From a phage, in the sequence record PX068456.1: a DNA stretch of 64,000 nt, one strand, 5' to 3'. This document shows positions 29,706-55,193 of the stretch, piece by piece (positions within the stretch are counted from its first letter, which is position 1; each line of letters begins with the position of its first letter). Position numbers and translations under genes: made by a program. Below the pieces are notes generated by a model, which did no database searches, was not told the DNA's origin, and was given only the letters and a program-made list of their open reading frames with translations.

Positions 29706-29839
29706 ATAAATTATCTTTAAAATAGCCAGTGTTTGCGGCACTTGACTATGAAGTATTAGGGTATCGGTAAGATGGTGGAGGCCATCTGCCGAAAGTTTAC
29801 TCTATTAAAGTAAGATTACAAGCTACATTAAAGATAACT

Positions 29840-29925
29840 TGGCGGTAGATGTAGGACTTGAACCTACACGCCGTTTCCGACGACAGTTTAGCAAACTGTT
29901 GTGGCTACCATTTCACCAATCTACC
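29840..29925 (-). tRNA. tRNA-Ser (anticodon GCT), type II
   Basis: Perfect acceptor GGTAGAT/ATCTACC, anticodon arm ACAGT-TTGCTAA-ACTGT, long variable arm. Confidence 0.7.
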
Positions 29926-29933
29926 GTTCTTAA

Positions 29934-30086
29934 TTATTCAAAACAACCGGAATCTTTTTGTTCTGCTTTTACCATACGAATATTTTTACCATCTTCAGAT
30001 TGTTGAAGATTAGAATACTCATAAACAACTTTATTATCTACAATCTTAACTCCGGTAACAACCTGTCCAATAGTTTTATAATTCAT
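29934..30086 (-). CDS. small hypothetical protein
   Basis: ORF-track start at 30134 would overlap tRNA-Ser(TGA); internal ATG at 30084-30086 has AGGAG upstream, so start trimmed. Confidence 0.3.
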   Translation of the reverse strand: MNYKTIGQVVTGVKIVDNKVVYEYSNLQQSEDGKNIRMVKAEQKDSGCFE

Positions 30087-30104
30087 AAAGCTCCTAGTTG
30101 AATT

Positions 30105-30194
30105 TGGAGGAAGATAATGGAGTCGAACCATCACCGTATCGCTACAATGGGCCAGGGTTCAAACCTGGTTGCGCACCGCTGCGCCCTACCTTCC
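30105..30194 (-). tRNA. tRNA-Ser (anticodon TGA), type II
   Basis: Acceptor GGAAGGT/ATCTTCC, anticodon arm CCAGG-TTTGAAC-CCTGG, long variable arm, T-arm GATGG-TTCGACT-CCATT. Confidence 0.6.
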
Positions 30195-30257
30195 CGTTAT
30201 CATACTTTAAATCTAACATAAAACTATCTTGCTTGTCAAGTAGTTTTTAAAACTTTT

Positions 30258-30339
30258 TGGTCGGGGTGACAGGATTCGAACCTGCATACTCCAATTACTC
30301 GGTTAACGCCTGATTAGAAGTCAGGTGAGATACACCCCG
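30258..30339 (-). tRNA. atypical tRNA-like gene (TCT anticodon-like hairpin, no canonical D-arm)
   Basis: Perfect 7-bp acceptor CGGGGTG/CACCCCG with CCA and good T-arm, but only hairpin CCTGA-CTTCTAA-TCAGG lies 9 nt from acceptor; fold unresolved by hand. Confidence 0.35.
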
Positions 30340-30411
30340 TTTTCACAGTAACTATAACAAAAAACTAAGTGAATGTCAAGATATTTTTACTAAAATTATT
30401 ATTTAAATTGA

Positions 30412-30517
30412 AGCCTAGTTATGGAATCGAACCATATTTCGTATTTAGTTAGACAAAGCGGTCTAACATATTTTTCAGGCTTTGATGGCCTCGGAATTAC
30501 CAAATACCCTACTAGGC
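30412..30517 (-). tRNA. atypical long tRNA-like gene (106 nt; possible TCA or CTT anticodon)
   Basis: Perfect acceptor GCCTAGT/ACTAGGC, canonical T-arm TATGG-TTCGATT-CCATA and D-arm with GG, but 74 nt between acceptor and T-stem. Confidence 0.35.
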
Positions 30518-30519
30518 GT

Positions 30520-30605
30520 TGGTGCAAGTGGAGGGATTCGAACCCTCAATCATTTAAGCGTTGCGTTTTAAGCACAATGTGTATCACCAATTCCACCACA
30601 CTTGC
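30520..30605 (-). tRNA. tRNA-Leu (anticodon TAA), type II
   Basis: Perfect acceptor GCAAGTG/CACTTGC, anticodon arm TTGTG-CTTAAAA-CGCAA, long variable arm, T-arm GAGGG-TTCGAAT-CCCTC. Confidence 0.7.
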
Positions 30606-30634
30606 ATATAGGAGATGCATAGCACCTCCTTTTA

Positions 30635-30712
30635 AATGGTGGTTCCCCAGGGTTACAATCCCTGCCCTCGACACTTATGAGGTGTGCGCTCTCGTCAGTG
30701 AGCTATGGAACC
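30635..30712 (-). tRNA. tRNA with CAT anticodon, copy 3 (unusual T-loop)
   Basis: Anticodon loop CTCATAA, D-arm GCTC-ACTGACGA-GAGC, T-loop ATTGTAA atypical, A7-G66 mismatch. Confidence 0.55.
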
Positions 30713-30986: not shown

Positions 30987-31166
30987 AGTTTTCTCCTTTT
31001 TGTTTAACTTGTGCTTATCTTAGCAAATAACTAGCTATGTTGTCAACTAGTTTTTACAATATTTTTTCTTGATCTGTAACCTAGTGTATAACCGCATACA
31101 AAAGATACAATAGCAATAAAAACAGATAAGCCAAAAATAATTTCTGTAGACATACTGTTTCCTTAA

Positions 31167-31388
31167 TTATGTGAAATCTAATTCCTCCTCTGGTGCTGTG
31201 TAATTTAGAAGAAGATCAGTTACACTTTGATGTTGATAAACCCTTTCGGGACTGTCATCGAATGCCAAACTTGTACAAATCGAGCATAGATCCGACTCTT
31301 GAATATTACCATTCCTGTCTCTACGGGAATGATTAGTCAAGTGTCTGTTACAGGCTCGGCAACGAAAATAAAAATTATGTTGTTTCAT
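31167..31388 (-). CDS. small zinc-finger protein (candidate)
   Basis: 73 aa with CRACNRH ... CSICTS cysteine pairs. Confidence 0.4.
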   Translation of the reverse strand: MKQHNFYFRCRACNRHLTNHSRRDRNGNIQESDLCSICTSLAFDDSPERVYQHQSVTDLLLNYTAPEEELDFT

Positions 31389-31459
31389 AAATCCTTCGTG
31401 AAGCCCATCCAGGGCAGTTGTAGGCTCTCCTTACCTTAATCTTATCACGAAGTTTTTAT

Positions 31460-33193
31460 TTAGTCAACCTGGATGGTTCCCATAGTACGAAGAACCTCTA
31501 CGTCAACACGGTTGCGGATATCAGTAAATGTTTCATCACGTCCTTCTACTTGTGGTGTAATAACCTTACCATTCTTGAAGATAACTTGTAACTCATTGTC
31601 TTCATCCTGGATATCTTTAAAAGAAAGATTATCTACAAGAGAAAGATTACCATTGGTATCCTTAACAACCTTAATAAAACCTTTTGCAGAGCGTTTACCA
31701 GGATCAGTTTTAGGCTCCTTACTTACCAAAATTTCGTGTTCACCGATGATGCTACCTGTTGCTTTAACAGCAAAACCAAAAGTATCTCGTGTATTGAACT
31801 GATAAGTATAACTACCAACACCAAATACAATATTGGAAGCTGCAAAACCTTTCTTCTTCAGTCGGCGTAAGATCTCGTGTTCTCGTTCAACAGTAATAGA
31901 ATCACCATAAATCATACCGATATGCTGATCAAGAACCTTGTAGCCTTTTCGGTTGATAGTACCACCAAACACTTCCCAAAGGATTTGAATAGAACCTACT
32001 GCTTCACAATAAGGAATCTCATAAGTTTCATCAATGCAATCAGCAACACTGCAATCCTGAAGAACATTGTAATACTTATTAACATCAGCCAAATGAACTA
32101 CTTCAGTGGCTGTCGCAATACCATTATTTAAGAGGTCTTCATAGTTATCAAAAGATTCAACATTGTATCCTGCAACAACTTTAACCGGATCTCCTGAATC
32201 TGGACGAATAACAAGACGACCATTTCGTGACATAATGGAATCTTTCAATTCTACCAGAATGCGAGTCAATACAGCCCAATAGTCATAAGAGTCTGCTACA
32301 TATGAACAAAAACCTTCTGGAACAATTTCTTCGATATAACGACGAAGAAACTCTTTTTCTGCTACATAACGAAGCCCATCTACATCATCTTTAAGATGTG
32401 GGAAATGTTTCTTCAGATCTTCAACAATAGCTCCAATGTTAGTCGTTGCTACTGAATGTTCTGTTGCCGGAATCGAACCTGCAACAAACTGATCATAATC
32501 AATACCATAATAATCATGCACAGTTTCAATAGCCAGAATATTATCTGTTCCTGTGAACGATGCCAAGTGAGCGATACCACTCTTATAACCATCTTCGATA
32601 TTACTTAAACCACGTAGGCTAAAATCATGACACTGGAAGTTAACGTGATCAATATTATCACACGTTGCCATCGCATATGCCATAGCGATACGCTTATACT
32701 GAAAAGCTGCTGTGGCATTAGTCATTGTCTTCCAAGTTTCATCTGACAACAGTGTTTCCACATAGTTAGTTAACCAAAAGAATTTTTCTAAAGTATTATG
32801 CACAGTAAATACAGGAACACCAATAGGACACAAAACACCCTCTGGCAGAGATCGAACTTCCAGCGGAAGATAACCTAAGTCGTGCAATTCTCCCCAACAT
32901 TCAGCAGAAGGAGCAGAAGCACCTAATGCATTTTTAGACATACGATAAAATTTATTTACTGCTGCACTACGAGACATTTTAAAGAAGCTATCCCACATAG
33001 TTACAAGAGCATCAGTGACTGCTCGACGAATACCTAAAACAATCACACCACGTGCTTCACGATCTGCATAGTGTGCAAAGTTTTTATCATTACGAGGAGT
33101 TAAATTAGAGAAAATAAGTTTTGTATTTTGGTTGTACATCTGCTTGTGACCAGGTTTGTACCAATCAGTAGCAAAAGGTGCAAAAATATTCAT
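31460..33193 (-). CDS. nadV: nicotinamide phosphoribosyltransferase family protein (Nampt/NadV-like)
   Basis: 577 aa; N-terminus MNIFAPFATDWYKPGHKQMY and overall length typical of Nampt/NadV. Confidence 0.75.
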   Translation of the reverse strand: MNIFAPFATDWYKPGHKQMYNQNTKLIFSNLTPRNDKNFAHYADREARGVIVLGIRRAVTDALVTMWDSFFKMSRSAAVNKFYRMSKNALGASAPSAECWGELHDLGYLPLEVRSLPEGVLCPIGVPVFTVHNTLEKFFWLTNYVETLLSDETWKTMTNATAAFQYKRIAMAYAMATCDNIDHVNFQCHDFSLRGLSNIEDGYKSGIAHLASFTGTDNILAIETVHDYYGIDYDQFVAGSIPATEHSVATTNIGAIVEDLKKHFPHLKDDVDGLRYVAEKEFLRRYIEEIVPEGFCSYVADSYDYWAVLTRILVELKDSIMSRNGRLVIRPDSGDPVKVVAGYNVESFDNYEDLLNNGIATATEVVHLADVNKYYNVLQDCSVADCIDETYEIPYCEAVGSIQILWEVFGGTINRKGYKVLDQHIGMIYGDSITVEREHEILRRLKKKGFAASNIVFGVGSYTYQFNTRDTFGFAVKATGSIIGEHEILVSKEPKTDPGKRSAKGFIKVVKDTNGNLSLVDNLSFKDIQDEDNELQVIFKNGKVITPQVEGRDETFTDIRNRVDVEVLRTMGTIQVD

Positions 33194-33264
33194 AGTTATG
33201 TCTCCTTGTTTGTTAATGTGGGAGTATCTTACTAAGCATACTCCCTATTGTCAACACTTATTAT

Positions 33265-34158
33265 TTAAAAATTCCACACGTATGGAGATACAATTTGTTG
33301 TTGCAAATCTGACTGATTCTTAACAAGAACACCAGAATCTTCTTGGATGTTATCTTCCCACACATTAAGAGAATGAATGCAGTCAAAGTGCTCACTTAAC
33401 TCTTTAAGACCTTTAGAAAAGATACCGTGCGTAACATATAGCTCAATCTTACCTGCGTTACGAGCACGTAGCACTTTAGCCAATTCGATAAAAGTTCTAC
33501 CACCATCACAGATATCATCTACGATCATCAGGTTACGCTTATTGAAATCCTGTACAGAAATGTCTGTACGAACAATAGCACCTGTTGCGGTATCTCTAAC
33601 CTTCTCTGCACAGAACACATCTAAAGACATTTTCTTAGATAATTTAAATATTTTCTTAAGAGCACCACCATCAGGGCTAACAAGAGCAAAATTCTCCATA
33701 CGTAACTTCCACTTTAAAGTTTCGTAAGCAATCTCTTCTTGAGGTATTACACAGAGTCTGTCAAACACTGCTGGAGTAACATCACTATGCGGATCAGCAA
33801 CGATAACACGTGAGAAATTTAATGAATTAATTATAGAAGCAAATGCTTTAACTCCGAATGCTTCCCCAGGCTCACACACTCTGTCTTGTCGTGCATACGG
33901 CACATACAACATGAGTAAATCAACACAATATGGTTTATGATATAGCATATTGTCCAATGCATTCTTAGTCATAACCAAAGTCATCAAGTCTTTAGCAGAT
34001 CTTACTTCTAAAGTGAGTAAGATTCTGTCTGTAGTATGATTGAAACCTGATAGATTCGTATCTAACTGAACATGTTGTTCTCCACCAGAGAATGTAAACA
34101 CTTTAACGTCTACATCAGTAACATAACAGTCAACACCATGCAGAATACTAACTTTCAT
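33265..34158 (-). CDS. prs: ribose-phosphate pyrophosphokinase family protein (Prs-like; possible ADP-ribose pyrophosphokinase)
   Basis: 297 aa; PRPP-binding loop IVDDICDGGRTF and Prs-like fold signature; adjacent to Nampt-like gene. Confidence 0.75.
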   Translation of the reverse strand: MKVSILHGVDCYVTDVDVKVFTFSGGEQHVQLDTNLSGFNHTTDRILLTLEVRSAKDLMTLVMTKNALDNMLYHKPYCVDLLMLYVPYARQDRVCEPGEAFGVKAFASIINSLNFSRVIVADPHSDVTPAVFDRLCVIPQEEIAYETLKWKLRMENFALVSPDGGALKKIFKLSKKMSLDVFCAEKVRDTATGAIVRTDISVQDFNKRNLMIVDDICDGGRTFIELAKVLRARNAGKIELYVTHGIFSKGLKELSEHFDCIHSLNVWEDNIQEDSGVLVKNQSDLQQQIVSPYVWNF

Positions 34159-34567
34159 TCTTTATCTCCTTAGTTGAGTTAGGACTTTATGTTCTCTACT
34201 CTACATACAGATAGATCTAAAGTCAATAGATATTTATTATTTAATTAATAATAAAATTAATAAATAATCTATTGTTAGTATAGAGCATGTATGTTAGTAT
34301 TATAGACATAACATAGTGTTATATGTAGACTACTCAGTTGTCTGTTAGATCATGTATCACAAGATTAGATAACACCCCCTCGCTGCGCTCGGCGTTTTTC
34401 GGGGGTTAGGGTAGCATACTTTTTTGCGTTTGTCAACACCTTTTTAGATTATTTTTAAGTACAACCTGAACCTCCTAAAAACGATTGTAACGAGTTTTAC
34501 TGTGAGGTAAGGTGATTGCATATCTTAGGTGCTATTAGCTCGTTACAGAGCCATACAGGAGGGAATA

Positions 34568-54207: not shown

Positions 54208-55193
54208 AATACTTAGTAACAGGTGGTTTAGGCTTTATTGGAAGTGCGGTAGTTCGTTTCCTGGCTAAAAATACTAAGAATGATATTTACGTTATAGATA
54301 AATGGGGTTACGCTTCAGATCCTAGAAATTTATCAGAAACACCCAATGTAAAGTTTTGTCGTGTTGACTTGACAAATGCGCAGTTAACTGCTAAGATTGT
54401 GGCAGATGTTAATCCAGATTATATAATGCATCTTGCAGCAGAAAGTCACGTAGATAATTCAATAGCATCACCGAGTGTTTTTATAAATTCAAATATTGTT
54501 GGGACATTTAATCTCCTAGAAGCTGTTCGTTTAATGGGAGATAAATCAAATCTTAAAATGTTCCATCATATTTCAACAGATGAAGTATATGGTGATATGG
54601 AAGAAGGGGATTATCCGTTTACAGAACAGAATCCTTATAAGCCAAGTAGTCCATATGCTGCATCTAAGGCAGCAAGCGATCATTTGGTAAGAGCGTGGCA
54701 TCGTACTTATGGTATTCCGACAGTTATAACAAATTGTTCAAATAATTTTGGAGCATATCATCATCCAGAAAAACTAATACCTAAAACGATAACAAATATC
54801 TTGATGCATAAACCAATCCCTGTTTATGGTAATGGTCTTCAAGTAAGAGACTGGTTATACGTTGACGATCACGCAGAAGCATTACACCTAGTAGTAACTA
54901 AAGGCAAATCTGGAGAAACATATAATATTGGGAGCAGAAACCCTAGAACTAATATTGATGTAATCTATATGATTTGTGATTATATGGATGCGGTGTATCC
55001 ATCTGAAACAGATGCTTGTAGCCTCATTGAGATGGTTACAGATAGACCTGGGCATGATTTAAGATACGAAGTGAATCCTTATAAGATTGAAAAGGAATTA
55101 GGGTGGAAAGCTAAAGGCACATTTGAAGAAAAACTTTATTCAACCATTGATTGGTATGTAGATAACAAAGAGTGGTGGGAAAATAAAGTTTAA
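54204..55193 (+). CDS. rmlB: dTDP-glucose 4,6-dehydratase
   Basis: N-terminal Rossmann [10 protein letters not shown], catalytic YxxxK (YAASKAA), 329 aa. Confidence 0.8.

Follow-up and report, generated by a model that had tools for sequence, protein, structure and literature searches.

NAD+ reconstitution pathway 1 (NARP1) pairs a Prs-like ADP-ribose pyrophosphokinase (Adps) with a Nampt-like nicotinamide ADP-ribose transferase (Namat). Its chemistry was demonstrated in vitro with the enzymes of SpβL1, for whose Namat crystal structures are available (9W5X/9W5W; PMC12774641). In phage Bas63 (JohannRWettstein; genes 79-80), in vivo work detected ADPR-PP, described a deletion phenotype and established independence from host PncC/NadR (Osterman et al., bioRxiv 10.1101/2024.02.11.579819). 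Enzyme activity is documented in the literature only for the SpβL1, DyoEdafos, P. foliorum and Gary homologues, and sensitization to NAD+-depleting defence upon deletion of NARP1 only for Bas63 and FADO. Almost all genes of the Adps clade (97%) have a Namat gene in their immediate vicinity.

Two further phage systems are related. The NARP1-AP operon of Vibrio phage Gary (Adps-Adpp-Namat; bioRxiv 10.64898/2026.01.28.702374) has the same Adps and Namat core as the locus described here, along with Adpp. NARP2 of phage KVP40, composed of the Nampt NadV and the bifunctional Nmnat NatV, draws on the same Nampt superfamily and likewise restores NAD+ during infection, but has no Prs-like partner; 94% of phages with a KVP40-type Nampt encode an Nmnat, which the genome type studied here lacks. 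Finally, cellular salvage by E. coli Prs and Nampt uses the same folds, and shares with the present pair the ARxDR, His, PDxG, loop Lys and DD motifs as well as the Nampt catalytic core.

The locus lies in a 64 kb stretch of DNA (the window; record PX068456.1) out of the ~148 kb genome of a phi92-like coliphage (Justusliebigvirus). The first-pass annotation had reported adjacent, co-oriented genes for a 577-aa Nampt-like and a 297-aa Prs-like protein next to a tRNA array, and all of this was borne out. The ORF listing gave two neighbouring ORFs on the minus strand, separated by a 71-nt spacer and with the Prs-like gene upstream; ARAGORN placed 16 tRNAs on that strand too (27836-30712), the closest of them lying 747 nt downstream of the stop codon of the Nampt-like gene. 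AAGGAG ribosome-binding sites precede both ORFs. The features of the locus are as follows.

34198..34226, minus strand: promoter-like TTGACT-N17-TAGAGT upstream of adps, 9/12 match, weak, from a consensus scan only
34166..34171, minus strand: adps ribosome-binding site AAGGAG, from sequence reading; annotated as such in phi92
33265..34158, minus strand: adps, first gene of the pair, encoding the 297-aa Prs-like Adps homologue
33194..33264, minus strand: adps-namat spacer, 71 nt, with a promoter-like motif, a hairpin and the namat ribosome-binding site
33226-33254, minus strand: promoter-like motif TTGACA-N17-TAAGAT in the spacer
33220-33245, minus strand: core stem of the spacer hairpin, dG -15 kcal/mol, z -2.82
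33202-33207, minus strand: namat ribosome-binding site AAGGAG, from sequence reading
31460..33193, minus strand: namat, second gene of the pair, encoding the 577-aa Nampt-like Namat homologue

The promoter-like site upstream of adps is weak because the region is not enriched overall in such sites: a general sigma-70 scan returned 21, as against 14.9 +/- 3.3 expected from shuffles. Only the specific TAAGAT-type motif family found in the spacer was enriched, with four occurrences in the window versus 0.12 expected. Comparison with phi92 revealed 19 synonymous and three non-synonymous codon changes in adps, and 35 and nine, respectively, in namat. Both genes are thus under strong purifying selection.

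Gene order and orientation are those of the Bas63 operon, and the two phages share a host species. Bas63 had been considered as an rV5-like relative of the window phage, but its record places it in Felixounavirus (87 kb genome, compared with ~148 kb for the Justusliebigvirus); the operons are therefore homologous while the genomes are unrelated. The FADO genes also follow the adps-namat order. Bas63 NARP1 is backed by in vivo evidence, the present pair by sequence evidence.

The 297-aa protein matched the Pfam families Pribosyltran, Pribosyl_synth and Pribosyltran_N. Raw identity in the Adps alignment discriminated poorly (24% to Prs and 27-39% to Adps) and was dropped, and HMM profiles were used in its place. 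The first-pass annotation had proposed a comparison with canonical Prs and ADPR-pyrophosphokinase profiles, and the outcome was Adps-like. Scores against phrog_619, TIGR01251 and PRK01259 were 306, 118 and 98 bits for the window protein, 333, 138 and 101 for Bas63 Adps, and 246, 96 and 64 for FADO Adps, while E. coli Prs gave 193, 423 and 533. The profile of the window protein mirrors that of tested Adps enzymes and is the reverse of that of E. coli Prs. In BLAST searches it scored 137-182 bits against Adps of Gram-negative phages as compared with 72 bits against E. coli Prs, and it aligned with Bas63 Adps over its full length (36% identity, E 3e-43).

The relationship to the Bacillus-phage enzymes is more distant. 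The SpβL1 and FADO Adps are 27-35% identical to the window protein, and pairwise BLAST yielded 83 bits for SpβL1 and 71 for FADO, next to 72 for E. coli Prs. By this measure the window protein is no closer to the Bacillus-phage Adps characterized in vitro than to E. coli Prs, and its assignment to Adps accordingly draws on the profile of the family, motifs held in common, similarity to Bas63 and gene context. Two sites of the protein were mapped.

33601..33603, minus strand: Adps catalytic lysine K186, in the flexible loop EKVRDTATG, aligned to SpβL1 K162
33490..33525, minus strand: Adps ribose-5-phosphate-type loop IVDDICDGGRTF, aa 212-223, a motif common to Gram-negative-phage Adps

K186 aligns with SpβL1 K162, whose alanine substitution (K162A) is the published catalytic-dead mutant, and with the loop lysine of E. 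coli Prs; the column is invariant in alignment A2. The second site is the loop quoted in the first-pass annotation as PRPP-binding, and it is present as given. Its core has the form DDICDGG[R/G/A]TF in the alignment of the window protein with Bas63, PVP-SE1 and other Gram-negative-phage Adps. The window and Bas63 proteins both read DDICDGGRTF, while SpβL1 and FADO have DDLSSFGGTF and retain the catalytic Lys. E. coli Prs reads DDMIDTGGTL, and the Prs-type DD-x-x-D-T-G-G-T loop does not occur in the window protein. In Prs, the DTGGT-type loop binds the 5-phosphate of ribose-5-phosphate. The Adps-specific motifs DPHSDV, K-x-R-D-xx-TG-x-I, DDICDGGRTF and THGIFS are all found, and the N- and C-terminal segments of Prs are missing. 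As judged from profiles, pairwise scores and motifs, the protein appears to fall in the Adps clade, apart from cellular Prs.

These data bear on the classical reading of such a pair, in which a genuine PRPP synthetase and a genuine Nampt would make NMN, to be converted to NAD+ by host NadR or PncC-dependent routes. Database names and Pfam/NCBIfam matches do read Prs and Nampt, and the small protein just clears the cut-off of the broad TIGR01251 subfamily model (118 versus 113), the only Prs model that it passes. Every Prs equivalog cut-off, however, was missed 3- to 10-fold: the score was 98 where 297 (PRK01259) or 296 (PRK00934) is required, and 52-72 where the remaining equivalog and subfamily models require 438-536. 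CDGGRT stands where Prs has its 5-phosphate-binding DTxGT loop. In the discovery paper, a Prs-type assay of SpβL1 Adps yielded no product, and Bas63 still countered defence in a host devoid of pncC and nadR. The large protein, moreover, carries an adenine-clamp signature that Nampt does not have. Taken as the main function of the pair, classical salvage is very improbable. Since Namat enzymes keep PRPP-to-NMN activity in vitro (PMC12774641), the pair may, by analogy, carry out some classical salvage alongside NARP1.

The 577-aa protein matched Pfam NAPRTase with 131 bits. The generic family models phrog_448 and PRK09198 were rejected as membership tests, as a KVP40-type Nampt scores as well on them as tested Namats do; because such models are blind to the difference between Namat and Nampt, the clamp motif and pairwise scores were used. 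The protein scored 400 bits against the SpβL1 Namat crystal sequences compared with ~175 against human and rodent Nampt, 395 bits against Bas63 Namat (39% identity over the full length, E 2e-135) and 374 bits against FADO Namat. When it was compared with phages by tblastn, matches formed two tiers, of 280-580 and 110-145 bits. PDB entries 9KE8/9KEO (340 bits) lie between Namat and Nampt and read GAQTYQRNTRD, which is not the Namat signature; they were set aside. The following features were located in the protein.

33077..33100, minus strand: Namat selectivity-clamp loop (SCL) TPRNDKNF, aa 32-39, from alignment A1
31784..31816, minus strand: Namat selectivity-clamp helix (SCH) GSYTYQFNTRD, aa 460-470, from alignment
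32348..32437, minus strand: Namat lineage-specific insertion 1, ~aa 253-282, from alignment A1 and a gap in the PDB alignment
31997..32167, minus strand: Namat lineage-specific insertion 2, ~aa 343-399, from alignment A1 and a gap in the PDB alignment

The SCH fits the published Namat signature exactly (Y at position 3, F at position 7, Phi = T, Q, N; criterion taken from PMC12774641); Bas63 has GSYTYQYMTRD at this site. Adenine-stacking aromatics are absent from the corresponding helix of KVP40-type Nampt, GGGLLQQLDRD. In the SCL of Namat enzymes, the adenine-stacking residue is Arg at position 3, or an aromatic residue at position 4 if position 3 is Lys or Tyr. The window SCL reads N-D-K-N-F, with Lys at position 3 (K37, aligned with SpβL1 R40), Asn38 at position 4 and F39 at position 5, and it is 2-5 residues longer than those of Bas63 and FADO. 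It thus lacks the aromatic stacking residue that Bas63-type Namats have at position 4, a point against the assignment. Position 4 is W/Y in Bas63 and FADO (Trp in Bas63), and W, Y, H, I or N among Adps-associated Namats, with I in PaP1 and H in CR3. The SCL is described in the literature as poorly conserved, single SCL mutants lose only 1.3- to 1.7-fold activity, and the clamp forms across the dimer interface with the ligand.

The catalytic core is conserved throughout, at D10, Y12, F191, R194, D217, A243, H246, R330, D332, G430, D431, G460, S461, T468, R469 and D470 (SpβL1 reference: D13, Y15, F189, R192, D215, the catalytic His, R306, D308, G360, D361, G390, S391, R399, D400). All SpβL1 residues that contact NAM, NMN or AMP are conserved or conservatively replaced (F392 by Y462, Y396 by F466, A362 by S432, R40 by K37). 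The two insertions are missing from SpβL1 and FADO Namat, and in alignment A1 insertion 2 is missing from KVP40-type Nampt as well. Bas63 Namat carries insertions at the same two sites, including that of insertion 2, which differ in sequence and length.

Against KVP40-type (NARP2) Nampt, the 577-aa protein scored only 135-143 bits (27-33% identity), and it belongs to the Adps-associated Namat clade and not to the Nmnat-associated one. A NARP2-type pathway, in which the large protein would act as a Nampt and an Nmnat would be encoded outside the window, is conceivable insofar as the window represents just 64 kb of ~148 kb. We extended the claim of the first-pass annotation, that no NMN adenylyltransferase lies nearby, to the whole window and to PHB05, the complete sister genome used for genome-wide absence checks, and it held. 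Neighbours of a KVP40-like Nampt gene had been considered as a source of an Nmnat reference, but none of the four carried a Pfam domain, and E. coli NadR and NadD were used as queries instead. Searches of all six-frame ORFs of the window and PHB05 with phmmer and tblastn yielded no NadR/NadD-type homologue (best E at least 2; positive control, E 1.3e-16). Neither the PHB05 annotation nor Pfam scans of its ambiguous genes revealed an Nmnat, the 'nucleotidyltransferase' gp151 being only a weak poly(A)-polymerase/CCA-type match. Furthermore, the large protein lacks a GGGLLQ-type helix, and in the published survey the two pathways never occurred together in one phage. The NARP2 reading has next to no chance of being correct and is effectively refuted.

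We conclude that the pair is very probably a two-gene NARP1 counter-defence module. The preference of the first-pass annotation for NARP1 over PRPP/NMN salvage is supported by the SCH signature, the match to the Namat crystal sequences, the Adps-like HMM profile, the adjacency and co-orientation of the genes and the absence of an Nmnat. Its activity we infer from homology (36-39% identity to Bas63), diagnostic motifs and gene context. Cleavage of NAD+ by a host NADase effector (SIR2, TIR, SEFIR, DSR or similar) would yield ADP-ribose and nicotinamide. The Adps homologue would use ATP to pyrophosphorylate ADP-ribose to ADPR-PP, and the Namat homologue would then exchange the pyrophosphate of ADPR-PP for nicotinamide, regenerating NAD+ directly, with neither an NMN intermediate nor an NMN adenylyltransferase.

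The same chemistry could serve primarily in phage metabolic housekeeping, for instance by recycling ADPR and nicotinamide released by NAD+-consuming enzymes of the phage. PHB05 does have genes for a Macro-domain protein and for a member of the Sir2 family (81 bits against Pfam SIR2 and 351 bits against phrog_2162), and NARP1 homologues also occur in non-mobile regions of bacterial chromosomes, for which their authors raised a possible housekeeping role. In the discovery paper, however, ADPR-PP was seen solely in the presence of a defence system, and the deletion phenotypes of Bas63 and FADO are defence-specific. The distance to the operon is 35 kb for the Sir2 gene and 67 kb for the Macro gene, and a recycling loop is postulated from the presence of these genes. 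We give a primary housekeeping role only a slight chance.

NARP1-AP is recognized by a Macro-domain ADPR-1''-phosphate phosphatase encoded no more than two genes away from the NARP1 pair, and none is encoded there in this phage. Profile searches, Pfam included, revealed no Macro domain in the neighbouring ORFs (73, 88 and 135 aa), and a tblastn search of the entire window with four Adpp-type queries gave no match (best E 0.55). As for the RyR-domain cADPR glycosidase that is inserted in NARP1 loci with RyDEP, no gene for one is present within the 71-nt spacer and the flanking ORFs have no RyR Pfam match. The operon is thus the core two-gene NARP1, devoid of a Macro-domain phosphatase or an RyR-domain glycosidase.

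Outside the window, a conserved Macro-domain protein of PHB05, gp179, is 41% identical over the whole Macro domain to Gary Adpp, a validated ADPR-1''-phosphate phosphatase. It has an 83-aa N-terminal extension, and its gene sits in a PRTase_3/HAD/Ter cluster ~67 kb from the operon, whereas Gary Adpp is encoded within its operon. A PDB sequence search (16-18 bits) had suggested that gp179 is not Poa1p-like, a view overturned by direct comparison with phage Adpp. It is possible, though rather doubtful, that phi92-like phages run a 'split' NARP1-AP, in which gp179, working in trans, would supply Adps and Namat with ADPR derived from aRES-type cleavage of NAD+; Bas63_0095 would then play a similar role in Felixounaviruses. 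Even less likely is a closed NAD+-recycling loop made up of gp179, the Sir2 protein of the phage and NARP1.

NARP1 in the phi92 lineage is already known. Supplementary Table 1 of Osterman et al. lists the Prs-like proteins of phi92, PHB05 and the BASEL phi92-like phages JohannJBalmer and PaulScherrer with 'Namat within 10 genes = Yes', and Supplementary Table 2 classes the Nampt-like proteins of the same phages as 'Adps-associated'. The first-pass annotation ranked the locus as the strongest counter-defence candidate in the window: its NARP1 call was correct, but both system and lineage had been published.

NARP1 is important in that viruses use it to rebuild a metabolite destroyed by host immunity, via a previously unknown intermediate, ADPR-PP. 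To this the locus, a textbook two-gene form from a lineage tabulated in the discovery paper, adds nothing new. Its practical value is for annotation. In about 60 public records from this group of phages, the two genes still appear as 'ribose-phosphate pyrophosphokinase' and 'nicotinamide phosphoribosyltransferase', or as 'hypothetical protein'. They could be renamed Adps and Namat, which matters when one wishes to predict whether a coliphage used in therapy will evade defences based on SIR2, TIR or SEFIR. The sole forward-looking element is the Adpp homologue encoded far from the operon. The published figure of 15% of NARP1 phages with a phosphatase comes from scanning only +/-2 genes; if the split NARP1-AP proved true, this figure would be an underestimate, and operon linkage would not be required.

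An adjacent, co-oriented pair of Nampt-like (577 aa) and Prs-like (297 aa) genes, which the first-pass annotation had placed at 31460-34158, was recovered with the same coordinates, strand and Pfam families, and the loop IVDDICDGGRTF attributed to the Prs-like protein was located at residues 212-223. The two genes, referred to hereafter as adps (Prs-like) and namat (Nampt-like), were called as ORFs as follows:

33265-34158, minus strand: adps, 297 aa, Pfam phosphoribosyltransferase and PRPP-synthetase domains
31460-33193, minus strand: namat, 577 aa, Pfam NAPRTase/Nampt family

A gap of 71 nt separates the genes, both on the minus strand, and AAGGAG ribosome-binding sites were read from the sequence ahead of each. 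Codon changes relative to phi92 were mostly synonymous (19 synonymous versus 3 non-synonymous in adps, 35 versus 9 in namat), which shows adps and namat to be genuine genes subject to purifying selection. Identity of the operon region to Escherichia phage EC.P2 is 99.6%, and about 55 further records match it at 97-99%. The close records include phi92 (gp107/gp108), vB_EcoM_PHB05 and the BASEL phages JohannJBalmer, PaulScherrer and EmilieFrey, and belong to the genus Justusliebigvirus, subfamily Stephanstirmvirinae. Public records name the pair ribose-phosphate pyrophosphokinase and nicotinamide phosphoribosyltransferase, or else leave them as hypothetical proteins. In four records titled 'Campylobacter phage' (MG065639, MG065645, MG065656 and MG065689; stated host Campylobacter jejuni, length about 146 kb), the sequence shares 97.7-97.8% identity with the coliphage operon. 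Their genomes resemble those of Justusliebigvirus, so that the stated host is probably an error or the result of contamination.

NAD+ reconstitution pathway 1 (NARP1) was first found in coliphage Bas63, genes 79-80. Bas63 lacking this pair was sensitized to SIR2-HerA, protection was independent of host PncC/NadR, and a new metabolite, ADPR-pyrophosphate (ADPR-PP), was present only in infected, defence-carrying cells (bioRxiv 10.1101/2024.02.11.579819). That the window pair should use this chemistry mainly in a housekeeping role is quite unlikely. Purified Adps of the Bacillus phage SpβL1 converted ADPR and ATP to ADPR-PP, from which purified SpβL1 Namat made NAD+ with nicotinamide; Adps proteins formed a well-supported clade separate from cellular Prs, 97% of them with an adjacent Namat, and NARP1 was present in 859 phage genomes (4.3%), no surveyed phage carrying it together with NARP2, the combination of Nampt and Nmnat (bioRxiv 10.1101/2024.02.11.579819). 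AntiDefenseFinder has reported detecting NARP1 in genomes of both bacteria and phages. Structures of SpβL1 Namat (9W5X, 9W5W) were solved in 2026; its selectivity clamp consists of two elements, one a variable loop (PMC12774641).

At residues 460-470 the window Namat carries the clamp-helix sequence GSYTYQFNTRD, which fits the Namat signature exactly in the alignment. The helix reads GSYTYQYMTRD in Bas63 Namat and GSFTYQYNTRD in FADO Namat, whereas that of a KVP40-type Nampt (GGGLLQQLDRD) lacks the aromatics. All catalytic-core residues named in PMC12774641 are conserved. The protein scored 400 bits against the Namat crystal sequences as compared with about 175 bits against human/rodent Nampt, 395 and 374 bits against the in-vivo-validated Bas63 and FADO Namats, and 135 bits against one KVP40-type Nampt. 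Scores in a tblastn search of 50,697 phage records fell into two tiers: 280-580 bits, which took in the tested NARP1 phages, and 110-145 bits. The clamp loop, described as poorly conserved (PMC12774641), is N-D-K-N-F, as compared with S-D-K-W-F in Bas63 and S-N-K-Y-F in FADO, its fourth position being Asn and not aromatic. Variation at this position extends to other Namats associated with Adps, PaP1 having Ile and CR3 His, and single-loop mutants of Namat lost little activity (PMC12774641). Two insertions were delimited by alignment:

32348-32437, minus strand: Namat insertion 1, about 30 aa, about residues 253-282
31997-32167, minus strand: Namat insertion 2, about 57 aa, about residues 343-399

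Both are absent from the crystallized SpβL1 enzyme and from FADO Namat; Bas63 Namat has insertions at the same two sites, but of different sequence.

A profile comparison of the Prs-like protein, proposed in the first-pass annotation, was run, and the scores tracked those of tested Adps and fell below the Prs equivalog cut-offs, all of which were missed widely. On the HMMs phrog_619, TIGR01251 and PRK01259, the window Adps scored 306, 118 and 98 bits, Bas63 Adps 333, 138 and 101, FADO Adps 246, 96 and 64, and E. coli Prs 193, 423 and 533; SpβL1 Adps scored 248 bits on phrog_619. The catalytic skeleton is kept, K186 aligning with K162 of SpβL1 Adps, for which K162A is the published inactive mutant. 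The motifs DPHSDV, K-x-R-D-xx-TG-x-I, DDICDGGRTF and THGIFS are common to the window and phage Adps and absent from E. coli Prs. In pairwise BLAST, E. coli Prs (72 bits) fell clearly below the Adps of Gram-negative phages (PVP-SE1, 182; PAEUMC01, 152; Bas63, 137 bits). The window protein was no nearer to the in-vitro-characterized SpβL1 Adps (83 bits), or to that of FADO (71 bits), than to E. coli Prs, so its tie to the biochemistry rests on the family profile, motifs, Bas63 in-vivo data and gene context.

The earlier observation that no NMN adenylyltransferase lies nearby was borne out in both the window and PHB05, a complete sister genome. No gene is labelled Nmnat, NadR or PnuC in the PHB05 annotation, and phmmer and tblastn searches with E. 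coli NadR and NadD of all six-frame ORFs of the window and PHB05 gave nothing better than E = 2; as a control, E. coli Prs recovered the adps ORF (E = 1.3e-16). PHB05 gp151, a 'nucleotidyltransferase', was rejected as an Nmnat, giving only a weak poly(A)-polymerase/CCA-type match. NARP2 is effectively excluded. Classical salvage, in which the pair would work through PRPP and NMN, is very unlikely: the clamp-helix motif, Namat scores, Adps profile and Nmnat absence favour a NARP1-type reading over simple salvage. There is no room for an inserted gene within the operon, and no Macro or RyR domain was found in the small ORFs on its flanks (73, 88 and 135 aa), indicating a plain two-gene NARP1 that is neither NARP1-AP nor RyDEP-extended.

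We conclude that the window pair very probably has the published NARP1 function, the chemistry demonstrated for homologues being predicted here from sequence. Adps would pyrophosphorylate ADP-ribose freed by host NADase effectors, and Namat would join the product to nicotinamide, yielding NAD+ without NMN or an adenylyltransferase. The system has been described before, and the lineage has already been tabulated. The Prs-like proteins of phi92, PHB05, JohannJBalmer and PaulScherrer carry a 'Yes' for Namat within 10 genes in Supplementary Table 1, their Nampt-like proteins are 'Adps-associated' in Supplementary Table 2, and the title of Supplementary Figure 3A refers to BASEL phages encoding NARP1 (bioRxiv 10.1101/2024.02.11.579819). 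The flag for a Namat within 10 genes in the supplementary table is informative, since 'No' rows also occur. A literature search for a test of the NARP1 pathway in any phi92-like phage found no such paper.

A motif scan revealed a promoter-like TTGACT-N17-TAGAGT upstream of adps. Four exact copies of TTGACW-N16-18-TAAGAT stand in the window, where 0.12 would be expected, a number reached in 0 of 100 shuffles:

31017-31046, minus strand: TAAGAT-type copy
31439-31467, minus strand: TAAGAT-type copy
33226-33254, minus strand: TAAGAT-type copy
54369-54397, plus strand: TAAGAT-type copy

Three of the four lie upstream of namat and of two small ORFs after it. The motif suggests a class of promoters specific to the phage, with TAAGAT as an unusual -10 element, and an independent namat promoter; because a copy stands upstream of namat, this gene may have its own promoter plus read-through from adps. 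Other features of the neighbourhood were:

33211-33256, minus strand: adps-namat spacer hairpin (GGGAGTAT...ATACTCCC), core stem 33220-33245, dG -15 kcal/mol, z -2.82
31167-31388, minus strand: 73-aa ORF directly downstream of namat, two CxxC pairs in a zinc-ribbon-like pattern
27836-30712, minus strand (that of the operon): array of 16 tRNA genes

The hairpin and the spacer of the promoter-like site overlap. Having no U-tract behind it, the hairpin is no classical terminator, but could serve as an operator or as an RNA element in processing or stability. The 73-aa ORF matches phrog_37033, a family of unknown function (E 1.7e-36), and has a TAAGAT-type promoter-like site to itself; neither the PHB05 RefSeq record nor that of phi92 annotates a gene at the corresponding place. 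The tRNA array includes three CAT anticodons (called tRNA-Met) and two genes each for Ser and Leu, with small ORFs scattered among them. In phi92 (FR775895), a 151-nt 'hypothetical tRNA' is annotated within the namat CDS (L008:2492-2642, window about 32451-32601). Since ARAGORN called no tRNA at that place in the window, the annotation is probably spurious.

Two further genes of this genome type, both outside the window, were noted in PHB05:

L004:15600-16316, minus strand: gp179, 238 aa, annotated 'phosphatase', C-terminal Macro domain
L002:12317-13129, minus strand: Sir2-family protein, Pfam SIR2 81 bits, phrog_2162 351 bits

gp179 lies about 67 kb from the operon, beside a PRTase_3 (ComF-like) gene, a HAD hydrolase and Ter genes, and has an 83-aa N-terminal extension. 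Against PDB it looked TARG1/OARD1-like, with only faint likeness to Poa1p. In direct comparison with the Adpp of Vibrio phage Gary, a validated ADPR-1''-phosphate phosphatase, it shows 41% identity over the whole domain (113 bits, E = 1e-35), and with the Macro protein that is operon-linked in Pseudomonas phage JG004 the identity is 45.5%; its family also includes Bas63_0095. The NARP1-AP survey covered only two genes on each side of NARP1 (bioRxiv 10.64898/2026.01.28.702374), so unlinked Macro copies like gp179 were uncounted. With 2,619 phage records the family is very broad and takes in Tk.4 of T4, a phage without NARP1, and a functional link between gp179 and NARP1 is therefore hypothetical only. 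Atd1 (anti-TIR) is another gene that the AntiDefenseFinder paper reports from Justusliebigvirus phages. The Sir2-family protein is a potential consumer of NAD+, encoded by a phage that would rebuild NAD+ as well.
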